A stretch of DNA of 62,971 nt, the filler included, from Nitrospinae bacterium RIFCSPLOWO2_12_FULL_45_22 (GTDB lineage Bacteria > 2-12-FULL-45-22): the NCBI GenBank assembly GCA_001803565.1. It is 7 parts of 7 records of this genome, joined end to end, with 100 filler letters (N's around TTAATTAATTAA, not from the genome) between each part and the next. Parts side by side here need not be neighbours in the genome. Positions count along the whole stretch, not along the records: positions 19,752 to 26,916 come from MHDQ01000080.1; 6 more parts are not named here. One strand, 5' to 3'. Below are positions 19,652-38,447 of this stretch, one piece after another (the first letter of the stretch is position 1; every line of letters starts with the position of its first letter). A program made the translations under genes and the position numbers. The notes under the pieces were generated by a model. That model was not told the DNA's origin. It was given only the letters and a program-made list of their open reading frames with translations, and ran no database searches.

Positions 19652-19751
19652 NNNNNNNNNNNNNNNNNNNNNNNNNNNNNNNNNNNNNNNNNNNNTTAAT
19701 TAATTAANNNNNNNNNNNNNNNNNNNNNNNNNNNNNNNNNNNNNNNNNNNN

Positions 19752-20689
19752 CCATCGTTTTGAGAAATAATGCTATTTGTTATGTAGATGGCTGGGCTTA
19801 CAGATTGATATTGCGATGAAGAAATACCAGACCCTTTATTTCTTAATATACTACTATTGTTTATATTAATCCTTTTGAATAAATAACCAGAATCAGTACC
19901 AATTAGGATCCCAGGGCTTCCCTCCGATATAATGCAATATTCGAACGTGATATTACTATCACCTCCGGCAGTCTTACGAATAATTTTTATACCGTCCCAA
20001 TATCCAGGGGCCGATGACTCGGCATAGGGGGCAAATCTTATCGGTTTGCTAGAAGTACCCACAGCATTTAAAGTACCATGGACAAACAGTCCTGACCCGG
20101 CCATGAACTTTACCTCTACCCCGGGCTCTATGGACAAGAGAACACCGGGATTCACAAAAACATCATCGGTGACAATATAAGGGCTATTGGCCTCAGTCCA
20201 GGTGGTGTCGGTAGAAATACCGCCGCCAATGGCCTTACCAACGAAATCGGCTGTCTTAACAATAGTTTTGGGATTGCCCCAGTCGTCAGCCAGGTCTTTA
20301 TAGGTAACCGTTATCTTATCGCCAGCAAAAGTAACTTGCAGCTTCCCATCCGCCCCAATGCTTCCTTGCTCATCCAATGCTATGGAACCCTGAAAAACCC
20401 CGGTAGAAACATCTGTCTCGGTTAGGGTAACAGTTTCAGCCTGGCTCTCAATAGCACTTGTCACCGACACACTTAGGCTATCTTTGGCTGTGCTATCCTT
20501 ATTCTCATCAATATCGGTAACCTGGATATACAAAGTCTCTCCAGATCGATAGATACTCTTATCCAGGCTCAAGGTACCCGTTACATTTGCCAGGGTGCTA
20601 TTAGGGATAAGAAGCACGAGGCAGGCTATTATTGCTATTGCCAGGCAAGCTTTCAGGGATAATTTAGGTAGGGAAAATGCTCTGCCCAT
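19752..20689 (-). CDS. Secreted or surface protein with right-handed beta-helix repeats (3' truncated)
   Basis: N-terminal signal peptide; TLTETDVSTGVFQG Ig-like segment; DTTWTEANSPYIV...IEPGVEVKF...LNAVGT..PIRF...WDGI pattern. Confidence 0.75.
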
Positions 20690-20855
20690 CCTGCCCTCCT
20701 ATGGGGATATTGCCAGAGTGGATCATGGGCGAGACTCTCATACTACGGGCCATTAAATCAAAGAAACCATTGGGTGTCAAGAGGAATTTTAGCCAGCTTA
20801 ATCTGAACCTCCCGATGGTAAAAAAATATTCCGGCAAAAATATTTTATCCTTTTC

Positions 20856-20884
20856 TTGACAAAAATACAATAAGATGCTATTAT
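20856..20884 (+). promoter_or_regulatory. Sigma70-type promoter
   Basis: TTGACA-N17-TATTAT with an extended -10 TG. Confidence 0.65.
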
Positions 20885-21002
20885 ATAATTATGCAATTGC
20901 TTGTATCATAGGGTTAATGGGGGTAGAAGGTTAAAATGAAGATCGAAACCCATAGAAACGGTATCATTCCTCTTTCAGTAATTTAATAAGGAGGACTGTG
21001 AG

Positions 21003-21476
21003 ATGAAGGTAGAAGGAACGGGGCATTATGAAATACCTTCAGGTATTCCTTGCGGTACCTTTGGAACTGTTATAACCCGCAATGGATTCATTAGATTTAA
21101 GGTTGAGTGTCGCCGGTGGGATTGTGTTGAGTGTAGGGACAACCTCTGGAGCATTTGGGAAGCTAAGATTGACATAGCATGGGAAGGTAGAGACCGGTTT
21201 TATGTTGGTACTATGCAGAAGGAACGCAGGCAGCTAAGCCGATGGCTGACCAAAGTAGGGCTGGAGCAAGCAATTACAGTGTATGCTGGTAAAGATGGTT
21301 TCTTAGTAATAGCAAACAGGCCTTTCCCCGGTAGCCAGAGAGTGAGGAAGAAGAAGACCCTCAAAGTAATGAAAAGATACCTGTTTACCCAAATTGACCA
21401 CGGCCAAAACCGCAAGATCGTTGCTACAAAAAGGTTTGGGTCGGTTTTGAGAGTGCTTATTACTCATATTAAATAA
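21003..21476 (+). CDS. Hypothetical protein with a putative Zn finger
   Basis: C-x18-CRRWDCVEC; AAGGAGG RBS; basic C-terminus. Confidence 0.6.
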   Translation: MKVEGTGHYEIPSGIPCGTFGTVITRNGFIRFKVECRRWDCVECRDNLWSIWEAKIDIAWEGRDRFYVGTMQKERRQLSRWLTKVGLEQAITVYAGKDGFLVIANRPFPGSQRVRKKKTLKVMKRYLFTQIDHGQNRKIVATKRFGSVLRVLITHIK

Positions 21477-21559
21477 AAGAGGACATAAGTAATATAGGTA
21501 ATAGGCACCATGAAATTTACCGGAAAGCATTACTGGTAGCGAAATGGCTGAAAATAGGC

Positions 21560-21856
21560 GTGGTCAATTCTGGTCAAAAAGCCCTTGCTTATGATTGGAA
21601 AGGGGCGAAATGGGAGGATATTGACTCGAAGTGGAAGTTCAAGCCGGACGACTATAAAGCCGCTATACTCAAAGAGATCTCGGAACGAGGACTTGTACCC
21701 TTGGAAAAGGCGGGAAAAGAGTTTATTGAGGAGCATTCCTTCTCAGAGGTTATTATTGAAGATGTGAGGAGCCTGGTCATTGATTGGTTGGAGAGTTTGA
21801 AGGAGAGGAAGGGTGACAATGATTATTCGCACACTACAACCACTAAAAGGGCTTAA
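21560..21856 (+). CDS. Hypothetical protein
   Basis: 98-aa ORF co-oriented with its neighbours; start uncertain. Confidence 0.5.
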   Translation: MVNSGQKALAYDWKGAKWEDIDSKWKFKPDDYKAAILKEISERGLVPLEKAGKEFIEEHSFSEVIIEDVRSLVIDWLESLKERKGDNDYSHTTTTKRA

Positions 21857-22028
21857 TCACCGGGGTGAAATCGTAAAAGTACCTCCGGGGACGTACCTTT
21901 CTGTTGATCCCGATAAGGCAAACTTGTTAATAAGCCTTGATCTAGCCAAGCCAGAGAGGATATTTGAGTGGGAAGCTAGGGATGAACCTTTAGGTAAGTT
22001 TCCAGTTCATGATCGGTATGTTAATTAG
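21819..22028 (+). CDS. Small hypothetical protein
   Basis: MIIRTLQPLKG... after a purine-rich RBS (GAGGAAGGGTG); overlaps the previous ORF. Confidence 0.5.
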   Translation: MIIRTLQPLKGLNHRGEIVKVPPGTYLSVDPDKANLLISLDLAKPERIFEWEARDEPLGKFPVHDRYVN

Positions 22029-22065
22029 CCTTACCATCTGTAACCCCTAGGGAGGGGCAATATCC

Positions 22066-22566
22066 ATGTTCTCTGGGAAAAAGCTAAGAGAGATAAGGAA
22101 ATCCAAAGGACTTACCCTAAAAAAACTGGCAGAAAAAGCTGACTTGAATTGGCAGCAAATACAGGCCCTAGAAACTGGAATAAGAACCGGCCTCACAGCT
22201 ATAACCCTAAGAAAGATAGCCTTGGCCCTGGATGTTAGCATGGATGAGTTTTTTGAGGATGAGCACTTAGGGCAGAGGCCCCTAGGGTTAATTTTGGATG
22301 GGATAGAAGAGTTAGCAGAGAGGCGGCGGCTGACCCTGCCCAAGGATATATATCCTATATACCTATTCCAGGAGGCCCTGGGCATAGCGGATAATGAAGC
22401 ATTCACCAATATCCTGTTAGCACTGGCCAGAGGCAGGGTTATTGAACTTATCCCGGTATTTGCTCGTGATACTAAAGAAGGTATGAAGGTCTATCAGGTG
22501 CCGGAACTAGGCAACAAGAAGTATTATTCATTCACTATTGTAGCGCCTTATGCTTCAGATAAGTAA
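22066..22566 (+). CDS. XRE/HTH_3 family transcriptional regulator
   Basis: KLREIRKSKGLTLKKLAEKA...IQALETG...LRKIALALDV helix-turn-helix; GGAGG RBS. Confidence 0.88.
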   Translation: MFSGKKLREIRKSKGLTLKKLAEKADLNWQQIQALETGIRTGLTAITLRKIALALDVSMDEFFEDEHLGQRPLGLILDGIEELAERRRLTLPKDIYPIYLFQEALGIADNEAFTNILLALARGRVIELIPVFARDTKEGMKVYQVPELGNKKYYSFTIVAPYASDK

Positions 22567-22728
22567 GGGTAGTTGGTATACTGAGTAGGGGGGATACTTT
22601 ATAGTCTGGCAATACAAAGGGGATAGGGAACCTAGGCCCGATAAGGATAGGTTAAACCTTGGCACCTATCTTTCCCCTTTATTCATAAAAGCCAGGGTAA
22701 GCAACCTTAGCTAAGGGAGGAGCATAAT

Positions 22729-23799
22729 ATGGGAGTCTACAAGAAAGGTAAAAGCTGGTACATAAACTTTTATTACCAGGGCCAGCGAATTCAAGAATGT
22801 GTAGGCCAGGCAAGTAAAACAGTGGCTAAGGAAGTCGAAGCAAAGCGGAAGGCCGAGGTTATAGAAGGCCGCTACAACCTGAACCAGAAGAAACTAACCC
22901 CTATCTTTGAGAACTTCTGCCAGCAGTATTTAGAAACCTACTCCAAGCCTAATAAAAAACCTTCCTCTTACCTGCGGGATCAGTGCTCCATAAAGCGGCT
23001 AGGGGAGTATTTCAATGGAAAAAGGCTAGCTGATATTAGCGCCTGGTTAATAGAAAAGTACCGGGCCAAAAGGAAGGTAGAAGAGGTAGCAGTAGCTACC
23101 CTTAACCGAGAACTGGCCTGCTTAAGGCATATGCTAAATACAGCCCGTAAGTGGAATAAACTGTACGATAGCCCTTTTAAAGATGTAAAGCTCCAGAGAG
23201 AGAACAATGGCAAGATGAGAATCCTTACTCAGGAAGAGGAAATAACCTTAATGGATGTCATAAAGGTTAGCCCCAAAGCCCGGCACTTAGAGCCAATAGT
23301 TATTACCGCTCTAAATACTGGTATGCGAAAAGGAGAGATCCTTGGCCTAAAATGGGGGGCAGTAACCTTCAAAGAAGGCTATATCACCCTGGAGAATACC
23401 AAGAATAATGAGATAAGGCTAATACCCATGAATGACAAATTGACAAATACCTTGAAAAATGTTAAAAAGGATTCCACGAGCGATTATGTCTTTATTAATG
23501 GAGACGGCTTACCATATAGAGATATAAAGACCGGATGGTGGAATGCGGTAAAAAAAGCCGGTTTAAGAGGGTTACGCTTCCACGATTTACGGCATACCTT
23601 CGCATCAAGATTAGTTATGGCAGGGATAGACTTAGTAACCGTAAAAGAACTCTTGGGACATAAGGATATTAAGATGACTATGAGATATAGCCATCCTACC
23701 CCGGAACATAAAAAGGCTGCGGTGAAAATTCTGGATCAAGTAACTACTATTTTAACTACTCCGTCCAAAGTAGCTATTTTACATTTCCCACAATCTTAA
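22729..23799 (+). CDS. Tyrosine recombinase/phage integrase
   Basis: Arm-binding N-terminus (WYINFY), catalytic R (TGMRKGEI), K (TKN), HDLRH, LGH and Y (TMRY). Confidence 0.95.
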   Translation: MGVYKKGKSWYINFYYQGQRIQECVGQASKTVAKEVEAKRKAEVIEGRYNLNQKKLTPIFENFCQQYLETYSKPNKKPSSYLRDQCSIKRLGEYFNGKRLADISAWLIEKYRAKRKVEEVAVATLNRELACLRHMLNTARKWNKLYDSPFKDVKLQRENNGKMRILTQEEEITLMDVIKVSPKARHLEPIVITALNTGMRKGEILGLKWGAVTFKEGYITLENTKNNEIRLIPMNDKLTNTLKNVKKDSTSDYVFINGDGLPYRDIKTGWWNAVKKAGLRGLRFHDLRHTFASRLVMAGIDLVTVKELLGHKDIKMTMRYSHPTPEHKKAAVKILDQVTTILTTPSKVAILHFPQS

Positions 23800-23812
23800 G
23801 CTAGATAAGGAA

Positions 23813-23889
23813 GGGCGAGTAGCTCAGGTGGATAGAGCGTTGGTCTCCGGAACCAAAGGCCGTGGGTTCGAGTCCCGCCTCGCCTACCA
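23813..23889 (+). tRNA. tRNA-Arg(CCG)
   Basis: Acceptor stem GGGCGAG/CTCGCCT, anticodon arm TTGGT-CT-CCG-GA-ACCAA, GTTCGAG T loop, encoded CCA. Confidence 0.96.
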
Positions 23890-24083
23890 ATCCTATCAAG
23901 GCTTTCCGCGACTTGTCCAAAACTCTTCCCAAAAGGTTGCCAAAAAATCGGCCCTTTTATTCAATATAGAACCTCTTTAATAGATCCGATGTTCACCCCA
24001 AGGCAAATTAGGTGCGAACGAGCCGTAATGCACGGTTTTCAAGGCTTTTTGCAATGGGGGTGGGCAAGGTAGAGTTTGTCTCC

Positions 24084-24112
24084 TTGACAAGAATATTTTT
24101 CTCCAATAAAAT
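24084..24112 (+). promoter_or_regulatory. Sigma70-type promoter upstream of the NifH-fusion gene
   Basis: TTGACA-N17-TAAAAT, about 55 nt before the ATG. Confidence 0.7.
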
Positions 24113-24165
24113 GCCCATAATTAAACATTTGATTAACATACATTTAAAAAGCAAGGAGGAAGAGG

Positions 24166-25920
24166 ATGTCTTCACGAATCAGGCAGATTGCTATATATGG
24201 GAAGGGGGGTATAGGTAAATCCACCATTGCCTCAAATATCTCTGCAACATTAGCAGAAAAAGGATTAAAGGTATTCCAGATGGGCTGCTCTCCCAAGATA
24301 GATAGTACCTCCCTGTTAAACCGAGGAAATATCCTGGAACAAGATATCCTGACCAAGATCCGGACTGTCGGTGCTACCAGAGATGGTTTTAAGGAGTGTA
24401 TAGTTGAAGGGTATGGGGGAGTATTATTGGCTGAGTCAGGCGGACCAGAGCCTGCTACTGGCTGTGCTGGTAAAGGCGTTTCCCACGCCCTGGATATCCT
24501 TGCTCGTACACGCTTGCTAGAAGAATTAAGGGTAGAGTTTGTAATTTATGATGTTATTGGAGATGTTGTATGTGGTGGCTTTGCCCAACCTATGCGCTCC
24601 GGCTATGCCCAGGAGATATATATTGCTTCTAGTGGAGAGCTGATGTCGATCTATTCTGCTAACAATATCTGTATCGCTATAAAAGAGCTGAGTAGCCAGG
24701 GGGCTTCGGTGCGGGTAGGGGGACTAATCAATAATATGCGAGGAGTCCCAAAAGAGGGGGAGTTGATGAAAGAATTTGCCCAGCGATTAAATATACCTAT
24801 TTTAGCCAATATCCCTAGAGATAAAATTGTTCAAGAAGCAGAGGCAGAGGGAGGCACAGTAATAGAGAAACGTCCCGACTCAGCACAAGCTTTCATATAT
24901 CGTGAGTTAGCCGAGAATATCATTAATAATACCTTCCTCGGAATTCCTACCCCGTTGGAATTAGACGATATATTAGGATTGCTCAGGCGCTATCAAGAGG
25001 TAGAAAGAGCCCCGTCACCTATAATGAAACCGGAGCCATCCATCCCCATCTCCCCTCTACAGTCTTCCACTGCCTCCCGAAAAGCTACCAATGGCCTATT
25101 GCGAAAAGTTGCCTTCTATGGCAAGGGTGGGATAGGAAAATCTACCATTGCTGCCAATATCAGTACTGCCCTAGGCCAAATGGGGGAAAGGGTCATGCAA
25201 GTAGGCTGTGACCCCAAGAGGGATTCTCTCTTTACCCTGTTTGGTAGGCTGATGCCCACTGTCTTAGACGAATTACGCAAGGGTCCCATGAATAGAGATA
25301 GCCTCAAAGGCGTTATACATCAAGGAGCTAATGGTATCTGGGGGGTAGAGAGCGGGGGACCCAGGCCGGGTGTGGGTTGTGCAGGTGGTGGGGTGATGGA
25401 GGCCCTACGTTTACTAGAGGAATATCGTATTTTTGAGGAATATAATATAACCTTTGCCTTATTTGATGTTTTAGGGGATGTTGTGTGTGGTGGCTTTGCT
25501 CAACCCATGCGGGCCGGTTATGCCCAAGAGGTTTATATCATCACTTGTGGTGAGATGCTTACCCTCTTGCAGATCAACAATATTGCCAAGAGTATAAAAA
25601 AACTGGCCGAGCGGGGTAGCGAATGTGCCTGTGCCGGGCTTATCAATAATATGCGGGGATTGCCTCATGAAGAACAGATTGTGGAAGAAGTAGCTGCATT
25701 AATGGGTTTGCCAGTAGTGATGCACATCCCTCGCTCATCTACCGTCCAAGATGCAGAACTACAGGCTAAAACAGTAGCTGAAGCCTTTCCCGATTCTCCC
25801 CAGGCCCAGGTATATAAAAACCTTGCCCAGAGAATATTAAATAACGATAAAACCTATATACCTAAACCCCTTACTATGGAAGAGATCAAGTCTATCATCA
25901 GCAAATATGCAGGAAATTAG
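24166..25920 (+). CDS. Tandem two-domain nitrogenase iron-protein-like (NifH-NifH fusion)
   Basis: Two complete copies of YGKGGIGKST, ESGGP..GCAG.GV and DV.GDVVCGGFAQP joined by a Pro/Ser-rich linker; domain 2 begins at residue ~313. Confidence 0.93.
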   Translation: MSSRIRQIAIYGKGGIGKSTIASNISATLAEKGLKVFQMGCSPKIDSTSLLNRGNILEQDILTKIRTVGATRDGFKECIVEGYGGVLLAESGGPEPATGCAGKGVSHALDILARTRLLEELRVEFVIYDVIGDVVCGGFAQPMRSGYAQEIYIASSGELMSIYSANNICIAIKELSSQGASVRVGGLINNMRGVPKEGELMKEFAQRLNIPILANIPRDKIVQEAEAEGGTVIEKRPDSAQAFIYRELAENIINNTFLGIPTPLELDDILGLLRRYQEVERAPSPIMKPEPSIPISPLQSSTASRKATNGLLRKVAFYGKGGIGKSTIAANISTALGQMGERVMQVGCDPKRDSLFTLFGRLMPTVLDELRKGPMNRDSLKGVIHQGANGIWGVESGGPRPGVGCAGGGVMEALRLLEEYRIFEEYNITFALFDVLGDVVCGGFAQPMRAGYAQEVYIITCGEMLTLLQINNIAKSIKKLAERGSECACAGLINNMRGLPHEEQIVEEVAALMGLPVVMHIPRSSTVQDAELQAKTVAEAFPDSPQAQVYKNLAQRILNNDKTYIPKPLTMEEIKSIISKYAGN

Positions 25921-26010
25921 GCATCCCATTTTTTATCTCAGGAGAATAAGGTTCATGAAATATTTACCATTGACTTCATAACCCCAATAAGAATAAGAGG
26001 AGGGCAGTTT

Positions 26011-26403
26011 ATGAGAGAGAAAGAAAACATAGAGAAGGTAAGAGGAATTTATGAAGCTATGGATAAGGGAGACTTTACTGCCTTGATAAGCCTGATGGCC
26101 GAGGATGGTTCAGTCTGGCTTATCGGCTCTACACCCATGTCTGGCCTCCATCAAGGAAAGGAAAAGATCGAAGCCCTCTTTAAACAGGTTAGTCAGTTTT
26201 TCTGTAACGGCATCCATTTCAATATTAAACATATCCTGGCTGAGGGTAATGTTGTGATGGCAGAATGGGAGGATTGGGCGATTGTAGCTAATGGCAAGAG
26301 ATATGAGAATAATGGAGTAAATATATTTGTCTTCAACAAAGAAGGTAAGATACAAAGCTTTCGGGAATACATAGACCCAGAAAAGATAATGCAAGTTATG
26401 TAG
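26011..26403 (+). CDS. NTF2/SnoaL-like family protein
   Basis: VRGIYEAMDKGD...G...GKE.I...AEGNVVMAEW...G..YEN...GKIQSFREYID pattern. Confidence 0.88.
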   Translation: MREKENIEKVRGIYEAMDKGDFTALISLMAEDGSVWLIGSTPMSGLHQGKEKIEALFKQVSQFFCNGIHFNIKHILAEGNVVMAEWEDWAIVANGKRYENNGVNIFVFNKEGKIQSFREYIDPEKIMQVM

Positions 26404-26415
26404 GCCTAGGACATA

Positions 26416-26916
26416 ATGCTAGAAAAGTTTATAGGGCAATATCACCCCTGGTTGAAGGAGCACCTGAGGAAGATCCAGGAGCACCCCTGTTATGATCCTT
26501 CCGCCCGTCATCTTTATGGAAGGGTCCATCTCCCGGTAGCCCCGGTGTGCAATATAGGGTGCAATTATTGTATCAGGGAATTTGATTGTGTTCATGAGAC
26601 CAGACCCGGGGTGACCAGCCGGGTCTTAACCCCTGAAGAGGCGCTAAAGAAATTAGAAGTAGTAGTAGAAACCTATCCAGGGATACGGGTTTTAGGGATT
26701 GCTGGCCCGGGCGAGCCGCTGGCTAATGAAGAGACCTTCGTCACCCTTGAACTGGCTCAAGCTAAATTTCCCCATCTGATCAAATGCCTCAGCTCTAATG
26801 GTTTACTTCTGGCAGACAAGCTCTCTCAGTTGAAAGAATATAATATCTCTACCATTACCGTTACCTTAAATGCCGTTAGGGCCGAGATCGGCGAAAAAAT
26901 CTATGCCTGGATCAAT
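26416..26916 (+). CDS. nifB: NifB-type radical SAM protein (3' truncated)
   Basis: HPC motif, RVHLPVAPVCNIGCNYC, ETRPG, AGPGEPLAN, CLSSNG, TITVTLNA. Confidence 0.9.
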
Positions 26917-27016
26917 NNNNNNNNNNNNNNNNNNNNNNNNNNNNNNNNNNNNNNNNNNNNTTAATTAATTAANNNNNNNNNNNNNNNNNNNNNNNNNNNN
27001 NNNNNNNNNNNNNNNN

Positions 27017-27143: not shown

Positions 27144-27404
27144 CAAAAATTTATTCCCTGGAAGGGTAAATTAGCGTATGGTAGATGGTTTTAGAAGAGT
27201 AGGAAAGTGGAGCGGTGAAATTTTGAAAGGGATGATACTTGGTTGTAAAAATTTTTGGGAAACCTCCATTTCTAAAATTTCATTGACCTTACCCCCAGAT
27301 AGGATTAAAATTAGTCCCCTAACAATCCTTTCTTTTTTTGAGAAAGGCCGAAGGGGTATTAAGGGTAACCCTTGAATGGGACACAAAAACAAGGAGAACC
27401 GCAT

Positions 27405-28646
27405 ATGAGAAAAGAAGAATTTTATAAAGAGGCTATACCTAATTCCCGCGGGCCGCTTGGAGGGATTAAGGTGCTGGAGGCCACTACTACCCAGGCTGGT
27501 CCAGTAGCAGGGGCTATCCTGGTAGACCTGGGTGCAGAGTCTATCAAGGTAGATGCCCCGGTAATGGGTGAACTGGGTCGGCATGTACCACCCCACCTGA
27601 ATATTCCAAATAAACTGGAGGCCAGTACGTATTATCTGACCCTTAACCGGGGTAAGAGGGGAATAACATTGACCCTCAATAAACCCGAAGGCCAGGAGGT
27701 CTTTCGGCAAATTGCGGAGAAGATGGATGTTATTATCCAGAACTATAAGCCCGGAACTATGGAAAAGTGGGGCCTGGGATATGAAGATATTAGGAAAATT
27801 AATCCTAATATAGTTTATGTTTCTTTATCGGGCTATGGGCAATTTGGCCCTTATCAACACAAGCCCGGCTATGACCCGATAGGCCAGGCCATGAGCGGTT
27901 TCATGAGCATAACTGGTTTCCCGGACGGCCCACCTATGAAGTCCGGTGGGGCCCTGGCAGATAATCTTACGGGCTGGCAGGGTGCTATGGGCGCCTTAGC
28001 AGCCCTCTATTACCGCGCTAAGACCGGCAGGGGCCAGCATGTAGAAAGCTCTCTGGTAGATGCTATGCTGGGGGTGAGTGACTGGGGGATCATGATGGCC
28101 GCTAATTTGGACCTATTATGGGAGCGAAGAGGCAATGCCTATGGCCCGGTAGGGTTGGACCCGGTAGTAAAGTGCAAGGATGAGTATATCTGCCTATTAG
28201 TTGCCTTAGATAGCCATTGGGCGAGGATGTGTAAGCTAATGGGCCGGGAAGACCTTATTGAAGACCCGCGGACCAAGAATTTAACCGCCCGGGCTGAACA
28301 TGCTGACTTGATAAATGGCGTCATTGGCGACTGGGCCAAAGAGAGAACCGCTGCTGAGGCAGTAAGAATCCTGGAAGAGGCCGATTTAGCCGTTGCACCT
28401 ATCCTTAATTTTAAACAGATATTAGAGGATAAGCATATTCAAGAAAGAGACATGATAGCAGAAGTGGAACACCCGGTGGCCGGCAAGCTAAAACTCTATG
28501 GCGTACCAACGAAATACTCTCTGACCCCAGCCCACGTGAAAGGCCCTGCCCCTATGCTGGGACAGCATAATGAAGAGATTTATGGCGGTATGTTGAGATT
28601 CGATAAGAAGAAGATGGAAGAGTTAAAGGGCAAAGGGATAATATAA
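27405..28646 (+). CDS. CaiB/BaiF family CoA-transferase
   Basis: GPLGGIKVLE, NRGKR, QNYKPG, GYGQFGP, LADNLTG; start MRKEEFY after an AAGGAG RBS. Confidence 0.93.
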   Translation: MRKEEFYKEAIPNSRGPLGGIKVLEATTTQAGPVAGAILVDLGAESIKVDAPVMGELGRHVPPHLNIPNKLEASTYYLTLNRGKRGITLTLNKPEGQEVFRQIAEKMDVIIQNYKPGTMEKWGLGYEDIRKINPNIVYVSLSGYGQFGPYQHKPGYDPIGQAMSGFMSITGFPDGPPMKSGGALADNLTGWQGAMGALAALYYRAKTGRGQHVESSLVDAMLGVSDWGIMMAANLDLLWERRGNAYGPVGLDPVVKCKDEYICLLVALDSHWARMCKLMGREDLIEDPRTKNLTARAEHADLINGVIGDWAKERTAAEAVRILEEADLAVAPILNFKQILEDKHIQERDMIAEVEHPVAGKLKLYGVPTKYSLTPAHVKGPAPMLGQHNEEIYGGMLRFDKKKMEELKGKGII

Positions 28647-28649
28647 GCC

Positions 28650-28785
28650 TTCAGCCGTCAGCTATCAGCAGTCAGCAAAACTTATCGTCCGGCGTTAGGA
28701 GTAAAAGGTAAAGAGAAATTTTTCTTACCCCTCACACCGCACGATTAGTTTAGCTGAAAGCTGACCGCTAATAGCTGAACGCTAA
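28650..28785. repeat. Heptamer-periodic imperfect hairpin between convergent genes
   Basis: TCAGCCG-TCAGCTA-TCAGCAG-TCAGC ... GCTGAAA-GCTGACC-GCTAATA-GCTGAAC with a second degenerate hairpin nested inside. Confidence 0.75.
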
Positions 28786-28794
28786 CGGGATTAT

Positions 28795-29637
28795 TTAGCC
28801 TTGTGCAGCCTTTTTCCTGGCCCGCTCCAGGGCAAATAAGGCGGCACCCATGGCCCCAGCGATCTGGGGCTCGGGCGGGATACTAGCTTTGAGCCCGGCC
28901 TTCTCCTCTACCTTGCTCAATACCCCAACATTCTTACCAATACCACCAGTAACGACAAACTTCTCTTCGATCCCTACCCGCTTCAAGAGAGCTATGACCC
29001 GGCTGGAGATGGCATCATGCAGGCCGGCCAAGATATCCGCCTTGGACGTCCCTTTCTTCAGCAAGGCCATTGCCTCTGATTTGGCAAATACGGCACAGAT
29101 GGTATTAAAGGGGATCTTCTGGGTAGACTCCAGGGAGATCGGCCCGATCTTGTTCAGCGGAAGCTGTAAGATATCGGCAATGATCTCCATAAATCTCCCG
29201 GTGCCACCGGCGCACTTATCATTCATGATAAAATTGGTCACATTACCCTTCTCATCTACCCGAATACCCTTGCAGTCCTGTCCACCCATGTCCAGGATAG
29301 TTGCTACCCCGGGGACAAAGCGGTATGCCCCTTTGGCATGGCAGGATATCTCGGTAATATTGGCATGGGCAAAGGGTACTATTACCCGGCCATAACCGGT
29401 CGCCACGATATAGGCTATATCCTCTATCTTTATATGGTCAGTCTTGACATCAGGGAGCTCCATCCGATACTCACCCCAGAGCTCCGAGCGCCTATGGATC
29501 GCACAATCAAAGGCCGCATAGGCCGTCTTGGCGCTCTCTGGCCCGGTCTCTATGTTGCTATAGGTGATAAGCTCCCCATCATCACAAATGACACACTGGG
29601 CACTGCGGGAGCCAATGTCTATTCCTGCGGTTAGCAT
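28795..29637 (-). CDS. ATP-dependent activator (BcrAD/BadFG/HgdC family), BzdQ-like
   Basis: AGIDIGS, ATGYGR, TEISCHAKG, DMGGQDCK, MNDKCAGGTGRF, CAVFAKSE, GGIGKN. Confidence 0.9.
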   Translation of the reverse strand: MLTAGIDIGSRSAQCVICDDGELITYSNIETGPESAKTAYAAFDCAIHRRSELWGEYRMELPDVKTDHIKIEDIAYIVATGYGRVIVPFAHANITEISCHAKGAYRFVPGVATILDMGGQDCKGIRVDEKGNVTNFIMNDKCAGGTGRFMEIIADILQLPLNKIGPISLESTQKIPFNTICAVFAKSEAMALLKKGTSKADILAGLHDAISSRVIALLKRVGIEEKFVVTGGIGKNVGVLSKVEEKAGLKASIPPEPQIAGAMGAALFALERARKKAAQG

Positions 29638-29696
29638 CCTTTATTTCCTCCTCTTAACCTGATAATGTTACATTTTCTGATAGCAACGCCTCTAAA

Positions 29697-29830
29697 CAAA
29701 TCCTAAATCTTAAGCACGAAGCTCTAAACAATATCGAAATCCTAATCCCAAATCCCAAAACTATTTATGTTTCTATATTTTGAATTTTGGTCATTTGAAA
29801 TTGTTTAGGATTTAGGATTTCGAATTTATG
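29697..29830. repeat. Heptamer-periodic AT-rich hairpin repeat (copy A)
   Basis: AAATCCTAAATCTTAAGCACGAAGCTCTAAACAATATCGAAAT ... TTTTGAATTTTGGTCATTTGAAATTGTTTAGGATTT; similar to 30710-30842. Confidence 0.8.
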
Positions 29831-29847
29831 GTTTATATTGATAATGA

Positions 29848-30627
29848 TTAGCCGGCCAACTGCTGGGCAATGATGGCCGCCCCTAAGGCCCCTACTATCT
29901 GTGGGTCCTCAGGTATCAATGCCTTATGCCCTAACTTCTCCTCTATGGCCCGCACTATCCCTAAATTCTTACTTACCCCACCCGTCAGCACTACCTCGGG
30001 CACGACTCCGATCCGCTGGGTCATACCAAAGAGCCGATCCACTATGGACTCGTGGATACCCGCCAGGATATCTTCCTTCGGGGTGGGGGGGTCCCGATGG
30101 ACATGGCTGATTACCTCAGACTCAGCAAAGATGACGCACATGCTGCTGATAGATGCCTTGGACTTGTGCTTTAAAGATACAGGACCCATCTCCTCTACCG
30201 GTACCCGCATCATCTTGCTCATAGCATGCAGGAATACCCCCGTACCAGCCGCACATTTATCATTGCCTACACTATCCTCTATCTTACCATCGGCACCGAG
30301 CTTTATCACCGTGGAAGACTCGGCCCCGATATCTATCACGGTACGGGCCGATGGAAAGAGCCAGTATGCCCCTTTGGCATGACAGCTCATGGAGGTACGC
30401 TGTTTCTGGGCAAAAGAGATCCCCTTACGGCCAGTACCGGTAGAGAGCACCAGCTTCAAGTCCTCTAGCTTCAAGCCCGCCCTGGCTAATGCCTCATCCA
30501 TGGCGTGCCTGGCCTCTATCTCGCCTACCTCCCCACTGACCCTTGTGGCACTACTCAAGACCTTGTCACCTTCAAGAATCACCACCTTGGTAGACAAAGC
30601 CCCCATATCAATACCTGCTACCGCCAT
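29848..30627 (-). CDS. ATP-dependent activator (BcrAD/BadFG/HgdC family), BzdP-like
   Basis: AGIDMG, STGTGR, CHAKG, DIGAE, NDKCAAGTG, CVIFAESE, GGVSKN; start placed at MAVAG after GGAGGG. Confidence 0.9.
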   Translation of the reverse strand: MAVAGIDMGALSTKVVILEGDKVLSSATRVSGEVGEIEARHAMDEALARAGLKLEDLKLVLSTGTGRKGISFAQKQRTSMSCHAKGAYWLFPSARTVIDIGAESSTVIKLGADGKIEDSVGNDKCAAGTGVFLHAMSKMMRVPVEEMGPVSLKHKSKASISSMCVIFAESEVISHVHRDPPTPKEDILAGIHESIVDRLFGMTQRIGVVPEVVLTGGVSKNLGIVRAIEEKLGHKALIPEDPQIVGALGAAIIAQQLAG

Positions 30628-30709
30628 ACCTAATTCCCTCCTCTTACTAAAGTTTATACCCTTATTACATTGTGACAATGCTATATTTACTGATAACAAA
30701 CGGGCAGTC

Positions 30710-30842
30710 AAATTCTAAATCCTAAGCACAAAATCCTAAACAATATCAAAATCGTAAATCCAAATCTCAAAACAAGTTTGACTGTTTTGAATTTTGGTTA
30801 TTTGGATTTGTTTAGGTGGTAGCATTTTAAATTTAGAATTTT
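30710..30842. repeat. Heptamer-periodic AT-rich hairpin repeat (copy B)
   Basis: AAATTCTAAATCCTAAGCACAAAATCCTAAACAATATCAAAAT ... TTTTGAATTTTGGTTATTTGGATTTGTTTAGG. Confidence 0.8.
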
Positions 30843-30853
30843 ACTTTGTCAAA

Positions 30854-31999
30854 TTATTTACCTACCTTCATCATCTCTAAAAATGCCTCTACCCGGGTCC
30901 TTATCTGACCAATACCACCCATTCCATATTCCAGGTCGAGCTCTAATACAGGAATTCCGGCGTCCTCCAATTTCTGTTTCATGACCGGTTTGTCATGGCC
31001 ATAGACATCACAAAACTTAATTATCTCATAAATCACCCCTTCCACCTTGAACTCGTTAATCAACCCCATGACAAAATCCATTCGCATAGAGAAAGGTCGC
31101 ATGCGGGCACATGGTGGGTGGTTGAGATAGCGTTTAGCCAGGGCTTCGATAGGTTCTAATGTGGTATCGGTCAGATTCCACCAGAACCTGGTGCCAGTAC
31201 AGAGCTCATCGGTGACAACAATTGCCCCCAGGCTCTCTATGGCATTGATAAACTCTGGCCGGTCCAGTATGCTGCCAACAACCATTAATCTTGGCCGGTC
31301 GCCATTGGATAGCGCCTGACGCTGAGGCAGCTCAGCCAAAAGCCTTTCTAATTGCGAATTGAACTCTGCCCGCGGCATACGCATACTCGCCTGGATAATC
31401 TCCATGGTCTCCGTCCCACTGATCAAAGGCCCACCTGATTTCCTGAAGTCATATAATTTTCTGAAAAGTTCCCGGCTCTTATTATAGAGCTTTATGGTCT
31501 CCCTAAGCTTATCCGTAGTAATATCTACCTGGAAAAATTCCTCTAATTCTTGCTTTAAATGCCGAAGCTGTTGGGCAAAAAATTCTTCTGCCTCGGGGGT
31601 AATTTTGTGGGGGACACTGACGATATGCCTAAATGGGGTTTGTAGATAGTTATTCCAGACATCAAATAGTCGCCTGATAGGGTCACAACTGGTCCCAGAG
31701 ACAACTCCATCTAGAAAATCATAATCCTTTCTCAGGGCAAGCTCGAGACAACCCCGGGCAAAGGTACAGGTATTGGCATACAGATAAGCATCGGCCTCAG
31801 TGATATCTTCTGCCTTAGCCCCGGTAACTCTTATCGGGAGCATACCCCCAGCCTCGATGATTTCTTCGGGGATGTAAGTACATATCCAGCCAACAACCTT
31901 TTTCCCCTGGGCCTTCCAGGCCTGGATAGCCTTACTCTGGGGGAAGGGAGAGCTGGCTTCCTTCAATTCTTCCAATACCTTTAGAGATTGCTCCATCAC
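30854..31999 (-). CDS. 2-hydroxyacyl-CoA dehydratase / benzoyl-CoA reductase family, ~380-aa (BcrC/BzdN/HgdB-like) subunit
   Basis: CTYIPEEII, CTFARG, SCD, DELCTGTR, PCAR, KFCD, QIRTRVEAFLEM. Confidence 0.9.
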   Translation of the reverse strand: MMEQSLKVLEELKEASSPFPQSKAIQAWKAQGKKVVGWICTYIPEEIIEAGGMLPIRVTGAKAEDITEADAYLYANTCTFARGCLELALRKDYDFLDGVVSGTSCDPIRRLFDVWNNYLQTPFRHIVSVPHKITPEAEEFFAQQLRHLKQELEEFFQVDITTDKLRETIKLYNKSRELFRKLYDFRKSGGPLISGTETMEIIQASMRMPRAEFNSQLERLLAELPQRQALSNGDRPRLMVVGSILDRPEFINAIESLGAIVVTDELCTGTRFWWNLTDTTLEPIEALAKRYLNHPPCARMRPFSMRMDFVMGLINEFKVEGVIYEIIKFCDVYGHDKPVMKQKLEDAGIPVLELDLEYGMGGIGQIRTRVEAFLEMMKVGK

Positions 32000-32050
32000 C
32001 TCTGCTCCTTATACTCAAGTTGTACTCAAGCCAAGTTATTTAAATTAATT

Positions 32051-32264
32051 GTAACCGTTCACCCGGCTAAGCTTTATCAGCCACCAAGACACGAAGGCAC
32101 CAAGAGATGCGATCATTTATCCGGTGTATGACATACGCTGCATGCCCTATGCAGAGCAAGCTCTGCCACTACAGCCTACAAAAAAGTTTGTACCTGCCTG
32201 CCGCAGGCAGGCTCGACTCCCTTCATGCCTTGGTGACTTAGTGTCTTGGTGGCTGAACGGTTAC
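32051..32264 (+). mobile_element. MITE-like repeat copy 2 (complete, 214 bp)
   Basis: TIR GTAACCGTTCA/TGAACGGTTAC, flanked on both sides by AATTAATT; subterminal 9-mer arrays; internal REP palindrome. Confidence 0.85.
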
Positions 32265-32266
32265 AA

Positions 32267-33541
32267 TTAATTTCGTACGCCGATTCCCTTTTTTTCCTCC
32301 ATCCTCTCAAAAAATTCCTCTAGTTTACCTTTAACCTCTTCGGTAGAGGTGAAAGACTTGTCTACCAGGTCACAATCTATCACTGCTACTGGCAGGTCCA
32401 GTTTGTCCTGGAGTTCATCCTTTACTGCCCGGATGCAGGCACAGGCCTGCCGGCAGCCGATATGGGCAAAGAACACAGCTCCATCCACCCGGTATTCCTG
32501 AGCAGATTTTACCATACTCTCTATAAAAGGTTCCATAGGGCCATGCAGTTGGTAGCAAGCAGGGTGGACAAAGGTCTTTCGGGCCAGGTTTTCTACTGGC
32601 TTATTCGGATTTTTCAGCCAGTAAGGATCATGTCCCCAGGCATTAAGGATATCTGCTACTATAACTGCCCCGTGCTCTTCTTGCATCCAATCCATAATAC
32701 TCATATCCCAAAATGGTATCACAAAAGGGAGTATTAGGCGATATCGTTCTTCGGGTAGTACCCCTATCCCTTTATCTACCCTCTCTTTCACCTCGTCCCG
32801 CATCTGCTCATAAAAAGTCACTGCTTCCGCTGTACCGGCCATGAGCCACATGACCGCTACCTGGGCAAAGAGGCCCTCACAGGGAAAAGGCTCAGGTACT
32901 GCTTTGCGTAATTCATTGAGCTCCAGACAAAGCTCAGTAACTCTATAAGACCGGGCTACTATTTCCTTAAGCCGATCATAATCCATCTTACGCCCAGTTT
33001 GCTCCTCAAGAAACTGTATCAAGCCCTCATATTCTTCGGTATAATAGGCCAAGCTCAGGTCATCATAGACATAAGGCCGATCCAAAAAATAACCGGGAGA
33101 GCCATACATCTCGGCCATACCCTCACCACTCTTAGGGGTATTATCGCAGGCCTGGGAAGAGAAGACAAAGAAGTCTGGCTTAGGGAAGGCCTGGGCTAAG
33201 ACCATGGCATCGGTGACCCGGTGGGCCGAACAGATCTCCGGTGGAAAGCCTACCTGGGCTGCTAATTCCAGATACTCTTTCAGGTCGCCAAAGAAATTGT
33301 TATACAGCGCATAGGCCTCAATATGCAAAGGGACAATATCCATGGCATAGAATAGTTCGATGGGGCACATGACAGTATGACCGACCAGGAATTTGCCCTG
33401 TTCTTTGGCACTAATGACCCGCTCATAATACTTAATTACTAAATCGAGATATGGGAGAACAGATCTGAAGCTGGAATCTTTATATAACTCCTTAACCCCT
33501 TCTAATTTATTTATTAGCTCTTGCATAGTAGGGTTTCTCAT
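32267..33541 (-). CDS. 2-hydroxyacyl-CoA dehydratase / benzoyl-CoA reductase family, ~420-aa (BcrB/BzdO/HgdA-like) subunit
   Basis: PIELFYAMD, ICSAHR, ACDN, FLEEQTGRKMDYDRL, HIGCRQAC. Confidence 0.9.
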   Translation of the reverse strand: MRNPTMQELINKLEGVKELYKDSSFRSVLPYLDLVIKYYERVISAKEQGKFLVGHTVMCPIELFYAMDIVPLHIEAYALYNNFFGDLKEYLELAAQVGFPPEICSAHRVTDAMVLAQAFPKPDFFVFSSQACDNTPKSGEGMAEMYGSPGYFLDRPYVYDDLSLAYYTEEYEGLIQFLEEQTGRKMDYDRLKEIVARSYRVTELCLELNELRKAVPEPFPCEGLFAQVAVMWLMAGTAEAVTFYEQMRDEVKERVDKGIGVLPEERYRLILPFVIPFWDMSIMDWMQEEHGAVIVADILNAWGHDPYWLKNPNKPVENLARKTFVHPACYQLHGPMEPFIESMVKSAQEYRVDGAVFFAHIGCRQACACIRAVKDELQDKLDLPVAVIDCDLVDKSFTSTEEVKGKLEEFFERMEEKKGIGVRN

Positions 33542-33562
33542 GCCTTTATCCTCCTAACAATT

Positions 33563-34711
33563 CTAGAAATGTTTAGTCTGGAGCATCTCTACGAAGGCCT
33601 CGGCCCGGGTTCTTACCTGACCAGTACCGCCTTGACCATACTCCAGGTCCAGCTCTAAGACCGGTATGTCCCGTTTCTCTAGCCTCTCTTTCAGTAGGGG
33701 TTTATCATGCCCATAAGGGACACAGTAGCGCACAATCTCGGAGACAACCCCATGTACCTTAAACTGATCCAGCATATCAAAGATATGACTAAAGCGACGT
33801 TCAGAGGGCTGGAAGCGGGCACAGGGTGGCCGATTTAAATAGTAGCGGGCCAGGGCCTCCATAGGTGGTAAATCAGTATCTACCATGTTCCAGAAGTAGC
33901 GGGTGCCAGTACATAACTCATCAGTTACCACTACGGCATCCAGGTCCTCAATGGCCTTGATCCATTCAGAATTGTGGAGGATACTACCCAGGATCATCAG
34001 TCTTACTCTTTTGTTTATCTGGCGATCAGTATGCTCTAGCTCATTCACCAATCTCTCTAATATTTTATTGTATTGCTCCCGGGGGATACGCATAGCGGCC
34101 TTGACCACTTCCAGGGTCTCTGCACCAGTTATTGGGGGATTATTCCTCTTTCTAAATTCATATAGGCTGTGCAAAAGCTCCCTACTCCTGTTATAGACAC
34201 TGATAGCATGACGTAGGGCCTCGTCACTAACTTCTTTCCCCACAAACTCTCCTAATTTTCCCTTTAACTCCTCCAGTTGAGCCCGGTAGAATTGGTGTGC
34301 CCGCTCAGTCCATTTTCTGGGGATATAGAAGATATGGGTGAAGGAGTTATTGTTGCCGTAGCGGAGCCATACATCATGGAGTCTCCGGGCACCATCACAG
34401 GTCTCAGCCGTCACTAAGCCCTCCAGGAAGTCGTATTGTCCTTCTATGGCTAATTGGAAGCCAGTACGGGCAAAAGAACAGGTGTTGATATAGAGGTAGG
34501 CCTCAGCCTTTTTTAGCTCCAGTTCTTCATTGTCGCCACTGACCCTGAAAGGAAGCACCCCGGCGGCATAGAGAATTTCTTCGGGGACGTAGATGCAGAC
34601 ATAACCTATAACCTTTCTTCCTGGCTTCTGCCATTCCTTGATAGCAGTATTTTTCGGGAAAGGCGTAGCCAGGTTTTTCAATTCTGTCAATGCCTCTAAG
34701 GAATTATCCAT
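33563..34711 (-). CDS. Dehydratase/reductase family ~380-aa subunit, paralog
   Basis: YVPEEILYAAG, CSFAR, TCDG, DELCTGTR, PCAR, RYCVPY, QVRTRAEAFVEM. Confidence 0.9.
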   Translation of the reverse strand: MDNSLEALTELKNLATPFPKNTAIKEWQKPGRKVIGYVCIYVPEEILYAAGVLPFRVSGDNEELELKKAEAYLYINTCSFARTGFQLAIEGQYDFLEGLVTAETCDGARRLHDVWLRYGNNNSFTHIFYIPRKWTERAHQFYRAQLEELKGKLGEFVGKEVSDEALRHAISVYNRSRELLHSLYEFRKRNNPPITGAETLEVVKAAMRIPREQYNKILERLVNELEHTDRQINKRVRLMILGSILHNSEWIKAIEDLDAVVVTDELCTGTRYFWNMVDTDLPPMEALARYYLNRPPCARFQPSERRFSHIFDMLDQFKVHGVVSEIVRYCVPYGHDKPLLKERLEKRDIPVLELDLEYGQGGTGQVRTRAEAFVEMLQTKHF

Positions 34712-35345
34712 TTGAACCTCCCTTTACGCTGATACCTTCTAAGATGAACCTATTAAGGATGCTCACCAGGTCATTTAAAATAACCTGGTTGCGATTTAAG
34801 AGCCACTGGAGGAGGATACCTTGCCAGGCACCTATCAGGGTTACAGCCAGAAGTCGAGAGTCAATATCAGTCCTTATGCTACCAGCTCGCTTGCCTTCTT
34901 CCACTATCTCAGACACAGATGAGAAAAATTCGTCAAAGGCATCCTTTAATACCCTTTCGAATTTTTCATCTACCTCGGTAAACTCAGCAATCAACACAAT
35001 AAAGATAACGAACTGGTCTTTATTTTTGAGGGTCAGCTCCATAAAGATATCTAGCATCTTAATCAGCTTCTCTAGGGCTCCTCCTTCTTTACCGATTTCC
35101 TTAATTATTAAGCTATTCCATAGGGCCTTTACCTCCCTCACTACCTCGCAAAAGATGGCTTCTTTACTCTCGAAATGACAATAGAAGGCCCCTTTAGTCA
35201 TCCGGGCCGATTCAGCTATTTGGGAGATAGTGGTGTTATGGAAGCCATTTTTGGCAAAGAGGCTCACCGCGGCTTCCAGTATCTCCTGTTTAGTCCTTTC
35301 TCCCTTCAGGTCCCAGGTATTTTTTACTGAATATGGGGTCTCCAT
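34704..35345 (-). CDS. TetR/AcrR family transcriptional regulator
   Basis: ILEAAVSLFAKNGFHNTTISQIA...KGAFYCHFESKE helix-turn-helix. Confidence 0.93.
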   Translation of the reverse strand: METPYSVKNTWDLKGERTKQEILEAAVSLFAKNGFHNTTISQIAESARMTKGAFYCHFESKEAIFCEVVREVKALWNSLIIKEIGKEGGALEKLIKMLDIFMELTLKNKDQFVIFIVLIAEFTEVDEKFERVLKDAFDEFFSSVSEIVEEGKRAGSIRTDIDSRLLAVTLIGAWQGILLQWLLNRNQVILNDLVSILNRFILEGISVKGGSNG

Positions 35346-35380
35346 TTTCCTTTACTGACACTAATTACTTACACTGATAC

Positions 35381-37800: not shown

Positions 37801-37811
37801 AACGTCCCTCC

Positions 37812-38447
37812 CTAATTTTTTGCTATAATCCTCTCCCTTTTGAGAGAAGGAGCCAATCCATCAAACACCATAGAGCGCAAGCAATTTACCAGGCTCTCCA
37901 ACCTTACCTCGTTGCGGTTGAGGAGCCATTGTAGTAATATCCCTTGCCATACCCCCATAAAGGCTATAGCCATTAAATTAGTGTTAATATCTTTATGGAT
38001 ACTCCCCTCGCTTTTACCATCATCGATTATCTGGGCGATAAACTCAAAGAATTCCATAAAACCCTCTCTGAGGGCGCGCTCAAATCTCTCATCTACCTCA
38101 GTAAATTCCGCTATTAAGACGATAAATATTACGTATCTCTCTTTATTTTCTAAAGTTGTTTCTACAAAGAGATCCAGGATATTCTCCATCTTTTTTTGAG
38201 CACTCCAGTTCCTCTTGAGATTTTTCCGCAAGACATCTTTCCATTCCTGCCTTACCTGATCTATAACGGCCATAAGGAGGTCTTCTTTATCCTCAAAGTG
38301 CCAATAAAGAGCCCCTTTACTCAGTTGGCACATCTCAGTAATCTGGGCAATAGAGGTGTTATGGAACCCATTCTTGGCAAAGAGAGAAATGGCCGCCTTG
38401 ATGATGGTGGCCTTGGTCTTCTCGCTCTGTATGTCTTTCTTATTCAT
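37812..38447 (-). CDS. TetR/AcrR family transcriptional regulator
   Basis: IIKAAISLFAKNGFHNTSIAQI...KGALYWHFEDKE; paralog of 34704-35345; start placed at MNKKDIQ from the promoter position. Confidence 0.92.
   Translation of the reverse strand: MNKKDIQSEKTKATIIKAAISLFAKNGFHNTSIAQITEMCQLSKGALYWHFEDKEDLLMAVIDQVRQEWKDVLRKNLKRNWSAQKKMENILDLFVETTLENKERYVIFIVLIAEFTEVDERFERALREGFMEFFEFIAQIIDDGKSEGSIHKDINTNLMAIAFMGVWQGILLQWLLNRNEVRLESLVNCLRSMVFDGLAPSLKRERIIAKN

Follow-up and report, generated by a model that had tools for sequence, protein, structure and literature searches.

A putative natural single-chain Fe protein with non-equivalent ATP sites: a tandem NifH-NifH fusion and its family of H1/H2 pairs

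The Fe proteins of nitrogenase and of nitrogenase-like (NFL) enzymes are described as homodimers whose two ATP sites are equivalent (PMC13474568). Every such site is composite: one subunit contributes the P-loop and switches, and Lys10 of the other acts on the bound nucleotide. A D43N Fe protein binds ATP without hydrolysing it (PMC13474568). In Get3, a member of the same ATPase superfamily, the D57N exchange of the catalytic switch-I aspartate leaves ATP bound without hydrolysis and traps a closed, ATP-bound dimer (PMC12506534). Here we analyse a gene of Nitrospinae bacterium RIFCSPLOWO2_12_FULL_45_22 that encodes two NifH-like halves in one chain of 584 residues, referred to as the query. 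It lies at positions 24166-25920 on the plus strand of a stretch of 62,971 nucleotides, the whole of which we call the window. The first half carries Ser in place of Asp39, a switch-I residue with a functional role in NifH and, by the shared 'DP' switch-I motif, presumably the equivalent of Get3 D57; the second half keeps the aspartate.

Tethered and asymmetric Fe proteins have been engineered. A linked BchL dimer is active with linkers of more than 20 residues, fails below 15 and is dead if one site, altered by K44A, cannot bind ATP (PMC7948495). KoNifH-KoNifH and AvNifH-AvNifH fusions with a 25-residue ArsA linker are soluble, and, according to the paper describing them, an ArsA-linked KoNifH dimer made earlier was functional for the reduction of acetylene in Escherichia coli (PMC13385145). 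Such constructs share with the query a single polypeptide or defined heterodimer, non-equivalent ATP sites and a linker of about 20-30 residues from the C-terminus of the first unit to the N-terminus of the second. They are built from identical protomers, whereas the family described below is natural, ancient and widespread. To the same set belongs an Asp39/Asn39 heterodimeric Azotobacter vinelandii Fe protein, attributed to Chan et al. in 2000, which reportedly sustained no normal turnover.

A natural tandem of deviant Walker A halves is found in the arsenite-pump ATPase ArsA, where A1 and A2 arose by duplication and fusion and are joined by a linker; the two halves are functionally non-equivalent. 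Unlike the query, ArsA is no Fe-S electron donor, and only the P-loop region aligns, with weak local matches in the PDB. The ArsA_ATPase profile PF02374 gives a short P-loop match (43.8 bits, residues 313-351, 39 residues), and TIGR04291 scores 43.5 bits against a cut-off of 650, far from a full-length ArsA match. We therefore treat ArsA as an analogy and not as a family-level relative. In the open-access full-text literature searched, no natural NifH-NifH fusion and no Ser39/Asp39 heterodimeric Fe protein is described. Apart from engineered NifH-NifH fusions, the literature matches were an operon name, 'nifH-nifHD1-nifHD2' (PMC11362086), and a fused nifH/nifE (PMC4153887). The words fused, fusion and tandem are all absent from a 2026 Chem Rev review (PMC13474568).

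The query frame is open over 584 codons, and Pfam family PF00142 (NifH/frxC, Fer4_NifH) matches it in two stretches that cover both halves (572.6 bits against a gathering cut-off of 25). Aligned with each other, the halves (residues 1-284 and 304-584) share 47% identity across 273 residues (E 1e-91); towards solved Fe proteins (NifH and MarH chains) the identity of each half is about 45%. The nearest structures are A. vinelandii NifH chains for the first half (240 bits) and the Fe protein chain 9fmg_D of Rhodospirillum rubrum methylthio-alkane reductase (MAR) for the second (236.6 bits). We call the N-terminal, Ser-type paralogue H1 and the C-terminal, Asp-type paralogue H2; both names are coined here. 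With NifH and the NFL Fe proteins (MarH, CfbC, BchL/ChlL, BchX, NflH) the query shares the fold, the Pfam family, the deviant Walker A P-loop, switches I and II, Cys97 and Cys132. It differs from them in joining two different paralogues in one chain, in having one site without Asp39 and in lacking Arg100 in both halves. The P-loop GKGGIGKS is kept at residues 12-19 (24199-24222) and 319-326 (25120-25143). The Cys97/Cys132 equivalents are Cys100 and Cys136 in H1 and Cys405 and Cys441 in H2, and the switch II motif D-x-x-G-D-V-V-C-G-G-F is kept in both halves.

The diverged motifs of H1 are GCSPKIDST (24283-24309, with the Ser42 codon TCT at 24289-24291) and GCAGKGV (24460-24480, with Lys103 at 24472-24474). 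Those of H2 are GCDPKRDSL (25204-25230, with the Asp349 codon GAC at 25210-25212) and GCAGGGV (25375-25395, with Gly408 at 25387-25389). An earlier note on this DNA had quoted these four motifs, and a script check of the coordinates returned each of them in place. Alignment to A. vinelandii Fe protein chains sets Ser42 opposite Asp39 and Lys103 opposite Arg100; H2 keeps the signature Lys320, Asp349 (the canonical Asp39) and Asp353. The claim of that note that the switch-I aspartate is Ser in the first half only is thereby borne out. The top sequence match, 1xd8, titled 'Nitrogenase Fe protein Asp39Asn', has Asn in the Ser42 column. No curated subfamily claims either half, every NCBIfam cut-off lying above the score of each. 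For nifH (TIGR01287), H1 reaches 312.9 and H2 312.3 bits against 394.35, the whole-protein score of 618 bits being a sum over two stretches; for CfbC (NF033200) the values are 302.3 and 307.4 against 402. On BchL/ChlL (TIGR01281), H2 scores 207.4 bits against 345.15, and H1 has no listing at E<=1e-60. On BchX (TIGR02016) the cut-off of 331.2 lies above each half, the whole-protein 333.4 again being a two-stretch sum.

Relatives were sought with the whole fusion in a collection of 5.8 billion proteins, from which the best 120 matches were listed. Among these, 97 are two-domain proteins of 550-640 residues, with identities from 99% down to 37%; the organisms named as sources are candidate division KSB1, Chloroflexota, Dehalococcoidia, Deltaproteobacteria, Binatia, Thermodesulfobacteriota and Myxococcales. 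The other 23, partial or longer, were set aside, and six of them later came back into the analysis as outgroups. When the query and the 97 are aligned with MAFFT, the Asp39 column is Ser in the first half of 97/98 and Asp in the second half of 98/98. The sole exception in the first half, P0103, belongs to another fusion family and reads GCDPKHDSTR and GCAGRGI in both halves. The pair also occurs as adjacent separate genes at five loci, L002 (58% identical to the query), L004, L005, L089 (genome G007) and L090 (genome G006), with GCSPK in the first gene and GCDPK in the second. Fused or split, the order is always H1 then H2. The query, 96 fusions and the five split pairs make up the set of 102 pairs on which the comparisons below are based. 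Identity between the halves of a pair is 29-50% (median 35%). The interdomain linker has a median of 26 residues (range 6-69, n=97) and measures 31 in the query.

The first explanation to be weighed is a trivial one, that the differences at Ser39 and Arg100 are private mutations, sequencing errors or marks of a decaying pseudogene. Nothing in its support was found. The frame is intact throughout, and the same four motifs recur in P0003-P0006, independent assemblies at 99%, 87%, 87% and 79% identity to the query. TCT lies two changes from GAY, so that a single base error cannot explain Ser42, and Ser stands at this position in H1 of 102/102 pairs. We regard this explanation as ruled out, its residual probability being negligible. 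The earlier note had allowed that homologues might keep Asp39 in both halves, which would have left Ser39 a private change or an error; what the pairs hold is Ser in one half and Asp in the other, without exception.

For each pair we scored six elements per composite site, namely Lys15, Ser16, Asp39, Asp43 and Asp125 in cis and Lys10 in trans. Site 2, made up of the P-loop and switches of H2 and Lys10 of H1, is canonical (KSDDDK) in 102/102 pairs. Site 1, made up of the P-loop and switches of H1 and Lys10 of H2, is canonical in 0/102. At the Asp39 position every H1 has Ser and every H2 has Asp (102/102 each); the earlier note had proposed a check of Ser39 in homologous fusions. P-loop Lys15 and Cys97/Cys132 are kept in both halves of all 102 pairs. 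In 58 pairs site 1 is changed further: Ser or Asn takes the place of Asp43, and these 58 are also precisely the pairs in which Thr or Asn takes the place of Lys10 of H2. The query is among a milder group of 37/102 pairs in which Ser39 is the sole catalytic-site change and site 1 reads KSSDDK. Single-domain references keep Lys10, Asp39 and Asp43 in 46/46 each. Selection has acted on the two ATP sites in visibly unlike ways over a very long period. On this comparative evidence, Ser at Asp39 in H1 is a hallmark of the family, and the one-sided loss is real, ancient and family-wide. The pattern fits what a degenerate-site model predicts, and in that measure the suggestion of the earlier note that one ATP site is degenerate is supported. 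Heterodimeric ATP-binding cassette (ABC) exporters combine one degenerate and one consensus composite ATP site, with catalytic residues lost on both contributing halves. The 58-pair subclade resembles them in this logic only, fold and function being unrelated.

We consider it probable that the query is a single-chain Fe protein of natural origin which, driven by ATP, donates electrons to an NFL reductase, and that it acts as a pseudo-heterodimer in which one ATP site hydrolyses and the other only binds. A flexible linker would connect two paralogous protomers of ancient divergence, H1 on the N-terminal and H2 on the C-terminal side, and the four kept cysteines would hold one bridging [4Fe-4S] cluster. 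ATP at both sites would close the pseudo-dimer and push the cluster toward the partner. The H2 site alone would hydrolyse efficiently, and hydrolysis there would reset the pseudo-dimer. The H1 site would be slow or silent, with a binding-only, structural or timing role. The retention of both P-loops fits this proposal, because tethered BchL with one binding-dead site is inactive. So does the 31-residue linker, because tethered BchL needs more than 20 residues and the engineered NifH fusions used 25. That it is catalytic residues which are lost from site 1 likewise suits a site that only binds, as the D43N Fe protein and Get3 D57N both hold ATP without hydrolysing it. ATP economy per electron may follow, as a proposal read from sequence. 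Its strongest form is tentative and in our estimate rather doubtful: a widespread natural class of NFL reductases whose heterodimeric or single-chain Fe protein pairs a catalytic site with one that holds ATP permanently and does not hydrolyse it, so that one electron would be delivered per single ATP, at half the canonical cost.

Several points weigh against a binding-only site 1. In the 37-pair subgroup that includes the query, site 1 keeps Asp43, Asp125 and Asp129 as well as the trans Lys10; with Ser39 as the sole change, turnover at this site, perhaps at a slow rate, is therefore conceivable. The 58 doubly eroded pairs form a single clade in both subtrees (support 1.0), and the linked loss of Asp43 and Lys10 therefore counts as one event and not as repeated independent covariation. 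From the reported behaviour of the Asp39/Asn39 heterodimer it follows that the cycle does not as a matter of course tolerate the loss of Asp39 on one side, and the family must have compensated for it. The pseudo-dimer geometry also comes from one source, an AlphaFold2 model built on a 24-sequence alignment (mean predicted local distance difference test, pLDDT, 86.4), whose predicted template modelling (pTM) score of 0.82 is what places the two halves relative to each other. pLDDT falls below 50 at residues 1-3 and 279-309 only and is mostly 80-97 in H1. In a fold search each half superimposes on NifH chains with target-normalised TM of 0.89-0.95 and root-mean-square deviations of 1.4-2.0 A in most of the 50 listed matches; the fusion model as a whole found single-chain NifH matches only.

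These points lead to the explanation that both ATP sites are active. Ser39 would be tolerated or compensated, water activation being taken over by Asp129 or another residue, and the divergence of the halves would mainly serve asymmetric docking on a D/K-type partner, or regulation, instead of ATP economy. The query and 36 other pairs, with every other catalytic element of site 1 intact, are what it would lead one to expect. The docking-face residues Arg100 and Arg140 differ between H1 and H2 and vary in the family, so that specialisation of docking would be real in any case. Against it stands the invariance of Asp39 in the single-domain relatives (46/46), the halves of symmetric fusions (11/11) and the H2 domains (102/102), which argues for a strong constraint wherever the site must work. 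Further, site 1 goes on eroding in the 58 pairs, the Lys10 that the other half contributes being among the losses, and site 2 never changes. We hold activity of both sites to be unlikely, yet the most serious competitor to the reading with one hydrolytic and one binding-only site.

The history of the pair was followed in a FastTree LG+gamma tree of 261 sequences: 102 H1, 102 H2, 46 references, 8 halves of symmetric fusions and 3 NifH-PF00148 fusions (PF00148 being the NifD/K-like family). The references are single-domain NifH-like open reading frames (ORFs) from named genomes, where 77 matched the H2 profile; 47 of the 77 were classified by NCBIfam, and a partial ORF (L067) was then dropped. 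H1 forms one bipartition (support 0.925), H2 another (0.966), and the two, as sister clades, are jointly set apart from the remaining 57 sequences (0.988). The topology therefore argues for a single origin of the pair, outside NifH, CfbC and every further group sampled, and for co-evolution of its members since.

Other natural NifH-like fusions exist, namely the symmetric NifH-NifH(-PF00148) proteins P0101, P0103, P0104, P0105 and L003 and the NifH-PF00148 proteins P0112-P0121. Both halves of the symmetric fusions carry GCDPKHDS[TS]R and GCAGRGI (the second half of L003 reads GCDPKHDSSR), and there is no asymmetry between the sites. Symmetric and NifH-PF00148 fusions make up a clade of their own (support 1.0), which identifies the symmetric type, on the tree, as an independent fusion event. 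Symmetric fusions are often further fused to a PF00148 domain, reaching 807-1085 residues. At L003 (2627-5884, Myxococcota) the neighbours of one are a further PF00148 gene and genes for a TonB-dependent receptor and a periplasmic binding protein.

Ser-type domains also occur alone. The best 120 single-domain matches to H1 have 55 Ser, 2 Asn, 59 Asp and 4 unreadable residues at the Asp39 position; the top 20 are all Ser, and 39 of the best 40 are Ser or Asn, the fortieth-ranked being unreadable. Judging by these matches, stand-alone Ser-type genes are common. Two stand-alone H1-type proteins, P0143 and P0154, have Asn at this position, the same change as in the laboratory D39N Fe protein (1xd8). 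A metagenome scan matched the query's own contig and L002 only. In a genome-contig scan with generic patterns, two NifH-like domains were found, among the matches listed, only in L003-L005 of 80 loci. A survey of the phylum around G003 matched 18/401 genomes at E<=1e-60, with an adjacent pair in G003 only; the survey around G001 matched 19/401. In six of these 19 genomes a motif script found no Ser-type H1; four of the six have a single Asp-type NifH-like ORF, and L095 and L096 have no NifH-like ORF. G001 itself fell under the survey threshold despite its symmetric triple fusion, which means that the search misses distant members. In the small phylum of G002, 3/5 genomes carry a split pair.

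The docking face has diverged as well. Arg100 is described as conserved in all nitrogenase and NFL Fe proteins except ChlL/BchL, as contacting NifD and NifK and as the target of DraT (PMC13474568). The references have Arg at this position in 44/46. H1 has Arg in 38, Val in 34, Lys in 25 and other residues in 5 of the 102 pairs, and H2 has Lys in 48, Arg in 16, Gln in 15, Gly in 13 and other residues in 10. Gly at this position of H2 occurs only in the query and in the 12 proteins closest to it, P0003-P0014 (13/102). Arg140 is variable across the family and differs between H1 and H2. The loss of Arg100 from both halves that the earlier note had pointed out thus holds for the query, with Lys103 and Gly408, and fails as a trait of the family; on these counts Arg100 is relaxed across the family and not uniformly lost. 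They contradict the review's statement, as worded in the portion cited, on its conservation in all Fe-protein homologues but ChlL/BchL (PMC13474568). DraT-type ADP-ribosylation at this position is, by the residues present, predicted to be impossible in the query. Under the favoured reading, with Arg100 changed to Lys in H1 and Gly in H2 and Arg140 variable, the face would have diverged both between the halves and from NifH. Each half would then probably be adapted to one face of a NifD/K-like partner of non-standard type. In the strongest, half-cost form of the proposal, the fixed polarity from H1 to H2 would also dictate a single docking orientation on an asymmetric partner.

Candidate partners are visible in the relatives. 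A PF00148 gene lies directly 3' of H2, a few bases away or overlapping, in 5/5 split loci, with one such gene in L002, L004, L089 and L090 and two in L005. The L002 protein is distantly NifD-like (84.7 bits to 9p1x_A, 76.8 bits to MarD 9fmg_A) and has cysteines aligned with three cysteines of 9p1x_A, which we take, by NifD numbering, to be the regions of Cys88, Cys154 and Cys275. Downstream of the query, after a small gene of the SnoaL/NTF2 type (26011-26403, plus strand, 130 residues; PF12680, 61 bits), a NifB-like radical SAM gene (26416-26916, plus strand) runs for 167 codons until the contig ends. It scores 193 bits to TIGR01290 (nifB, profile positions 6-157), 210.7 bits to 6y1x_A and 157 bits to the NifB chains 7jmb and 7bi7. 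The relatives' PF00148 genes and this NifB-like gene point, by homology, to an NFL reductase with a complex cluster and not to a standard MoFe protein; the adjoining NifB-like gene would suggest a partner with a NifB-derived cluster, as in MAR or Nfa. The non-standard partner proposed in the earlier note is therefore upheld to the extent that the relatives' partner is a divergent PF00148 protein, with no recognised NifDK. For the query's own partner the proposal finds no direct backing, as the contig ends in the NifB-like gene.

This gap leaves room for another explanation, in which the fusion is a cofactor-maturation or cluster-insertion ATPase working with a NifB-like enzyme, as NifH does in P-cluster and FeMo-co maturation, and not an electron donor. 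The functional neighbours visible are the NifB-like and the small SnoaL-like gene only, with no PF00148 gene on the 7165-bp contig, and maturation roles of NifH are stated in the literature (PMC13385145). The contig, however, simply stops within the NifB-like gene. Clusters of the NifB-H-D-K style are the norm for MAR (PMC13753814), and the position of the PF00148 gene directly after H1-H2 in 5/5 split-gene relatives, often overlapping, is the layout of a two-component reductase. A maturase therefore seems improbable to us, and clearly more so than a fusion with two active sites.

Two of the split loci have further neighbours. At L002 (4347-5123) a gene of the HGD-D type (2-hydroxyacyl-CoA dehydratase / benzoyl-CoA reductase type) follows the NifD-like gene, and an acyl-CoA dehydrogenase precedes it. 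The other contigs of the window are likewise rich in HGD-D genes and in BcrAD and CoA-transferase genes; a link to CoA-ester metabolism is possible. At L005 (5641-9879, Dehalococcoidia) a SorC-type regulator and a divergent PBP2/FecCD/ABC uptake system, of the type that serves siderophores, haem or cobalamin, stand ahead of an H1-H2-D-K operon.

The window consists of separate contigs strung together by six linkers N44-TTAATTAATTAA-N44 (six-frame-stop) at 12108-12207, 19652-19751, 26917-27016, 40874-40973, 48283-48382 and 55664-55763; gene order across these points therefore carries no meaning. The contigs are about 7-14 kb each. The true contig of the fusion gene is 19752-26916, identical to L001 and 7165 bp long, and genes past its end at 26916 are therefore not its neighbours. 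Within the gene, H1 comprises residues 1-278 (24166-24999), the Pro/Ser-rich interdomain linker, predicted to be disordered with pLDDT < 50, residues 279-309 (25000-25092), and H2 residues 310-584 (25093-25917), all on the plus strand. Upstream, a sigma-70-like promoter match, TTGACA-17-TAAAAT, lies at 24084-24112 (plus strand, 11/12 consensus); being a consensus match only, of a kind with 4 sites found against 6.3 expected in shuffles, it is weak evidence. No terminator-like site was found on the plus strand between 23800 and 26916, and for this reason the fusion gene, the SnoaL-like gene and the NifB-like gene are probably one transcript. The contig further carries a truncated adhesin-like ORF, small ORFs with a helix-turn-helix protein, a tyrosine integrase (22729-23799) downstream of them and a tRNA-Arg(CCG) gene (23813-23889). 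The end of the integrase and the start of the tRNA gene are 14 bp apart, and the region 21003-23889 looks like an integrated element at a tRNA gene, directly beside the promoter region of the fusion gene.

A Pfam scan of 46 window ORFs turned up no PF00148 protein, a negative of little weight, since ORFs on other contigs are not neighbours of the fusion gene. A different contig carries, at 27372-38468, a family III CoA-transferase, two BcrA/D-type activator ATPases, two TetR regulators and five HGD-D genes of alternating sizes (about 382 and 424 residues). The cluster looks like duplicated ATP-dependent dehydratase or aryl-CoA reductase modules. These benzoyl-CoA-reductase/HGD-type genes were considered as neighbours of the fusion gene and ruled out, since they lie on another contig beyond a linker. 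Elsewhere a separate 26-N gap (10791-10816) splits one CoA-transferase family III gene into the ORFs 10291-10821 and 10830-11582.

Whether MarH or IsrH follows the cycle in which each electron takes two ATP is given as unknown in the 2026 review, in the part cited here (PMC13474568). The H1/H2 family offers a natural experiment on this question, and the single chain allows each site to be mutated separately without subunit mixing. Work on plant organelles already makes use of engineered NifH-NifH fusions (PMC13385145). If site 1 is binding-only, one hydrolysis event would suffice for the Fe-protein cycle, and the family would provide a template for lower-cost or easier-to-express Fe proteins; in the half-cost form of the proposal, evolution would already have arrived at the cheaper Fe protein that is a goal of nitrogen-fixation engineers. 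The pair would then mark a sizeable uncharacterised clade of NFL enzymes; going by the names in the source records, its carriers are KSB1, Chloroflexota, Tectomicrobia, Binatia, Deltaproteobacteria-type bacteria and further uncultured groups.

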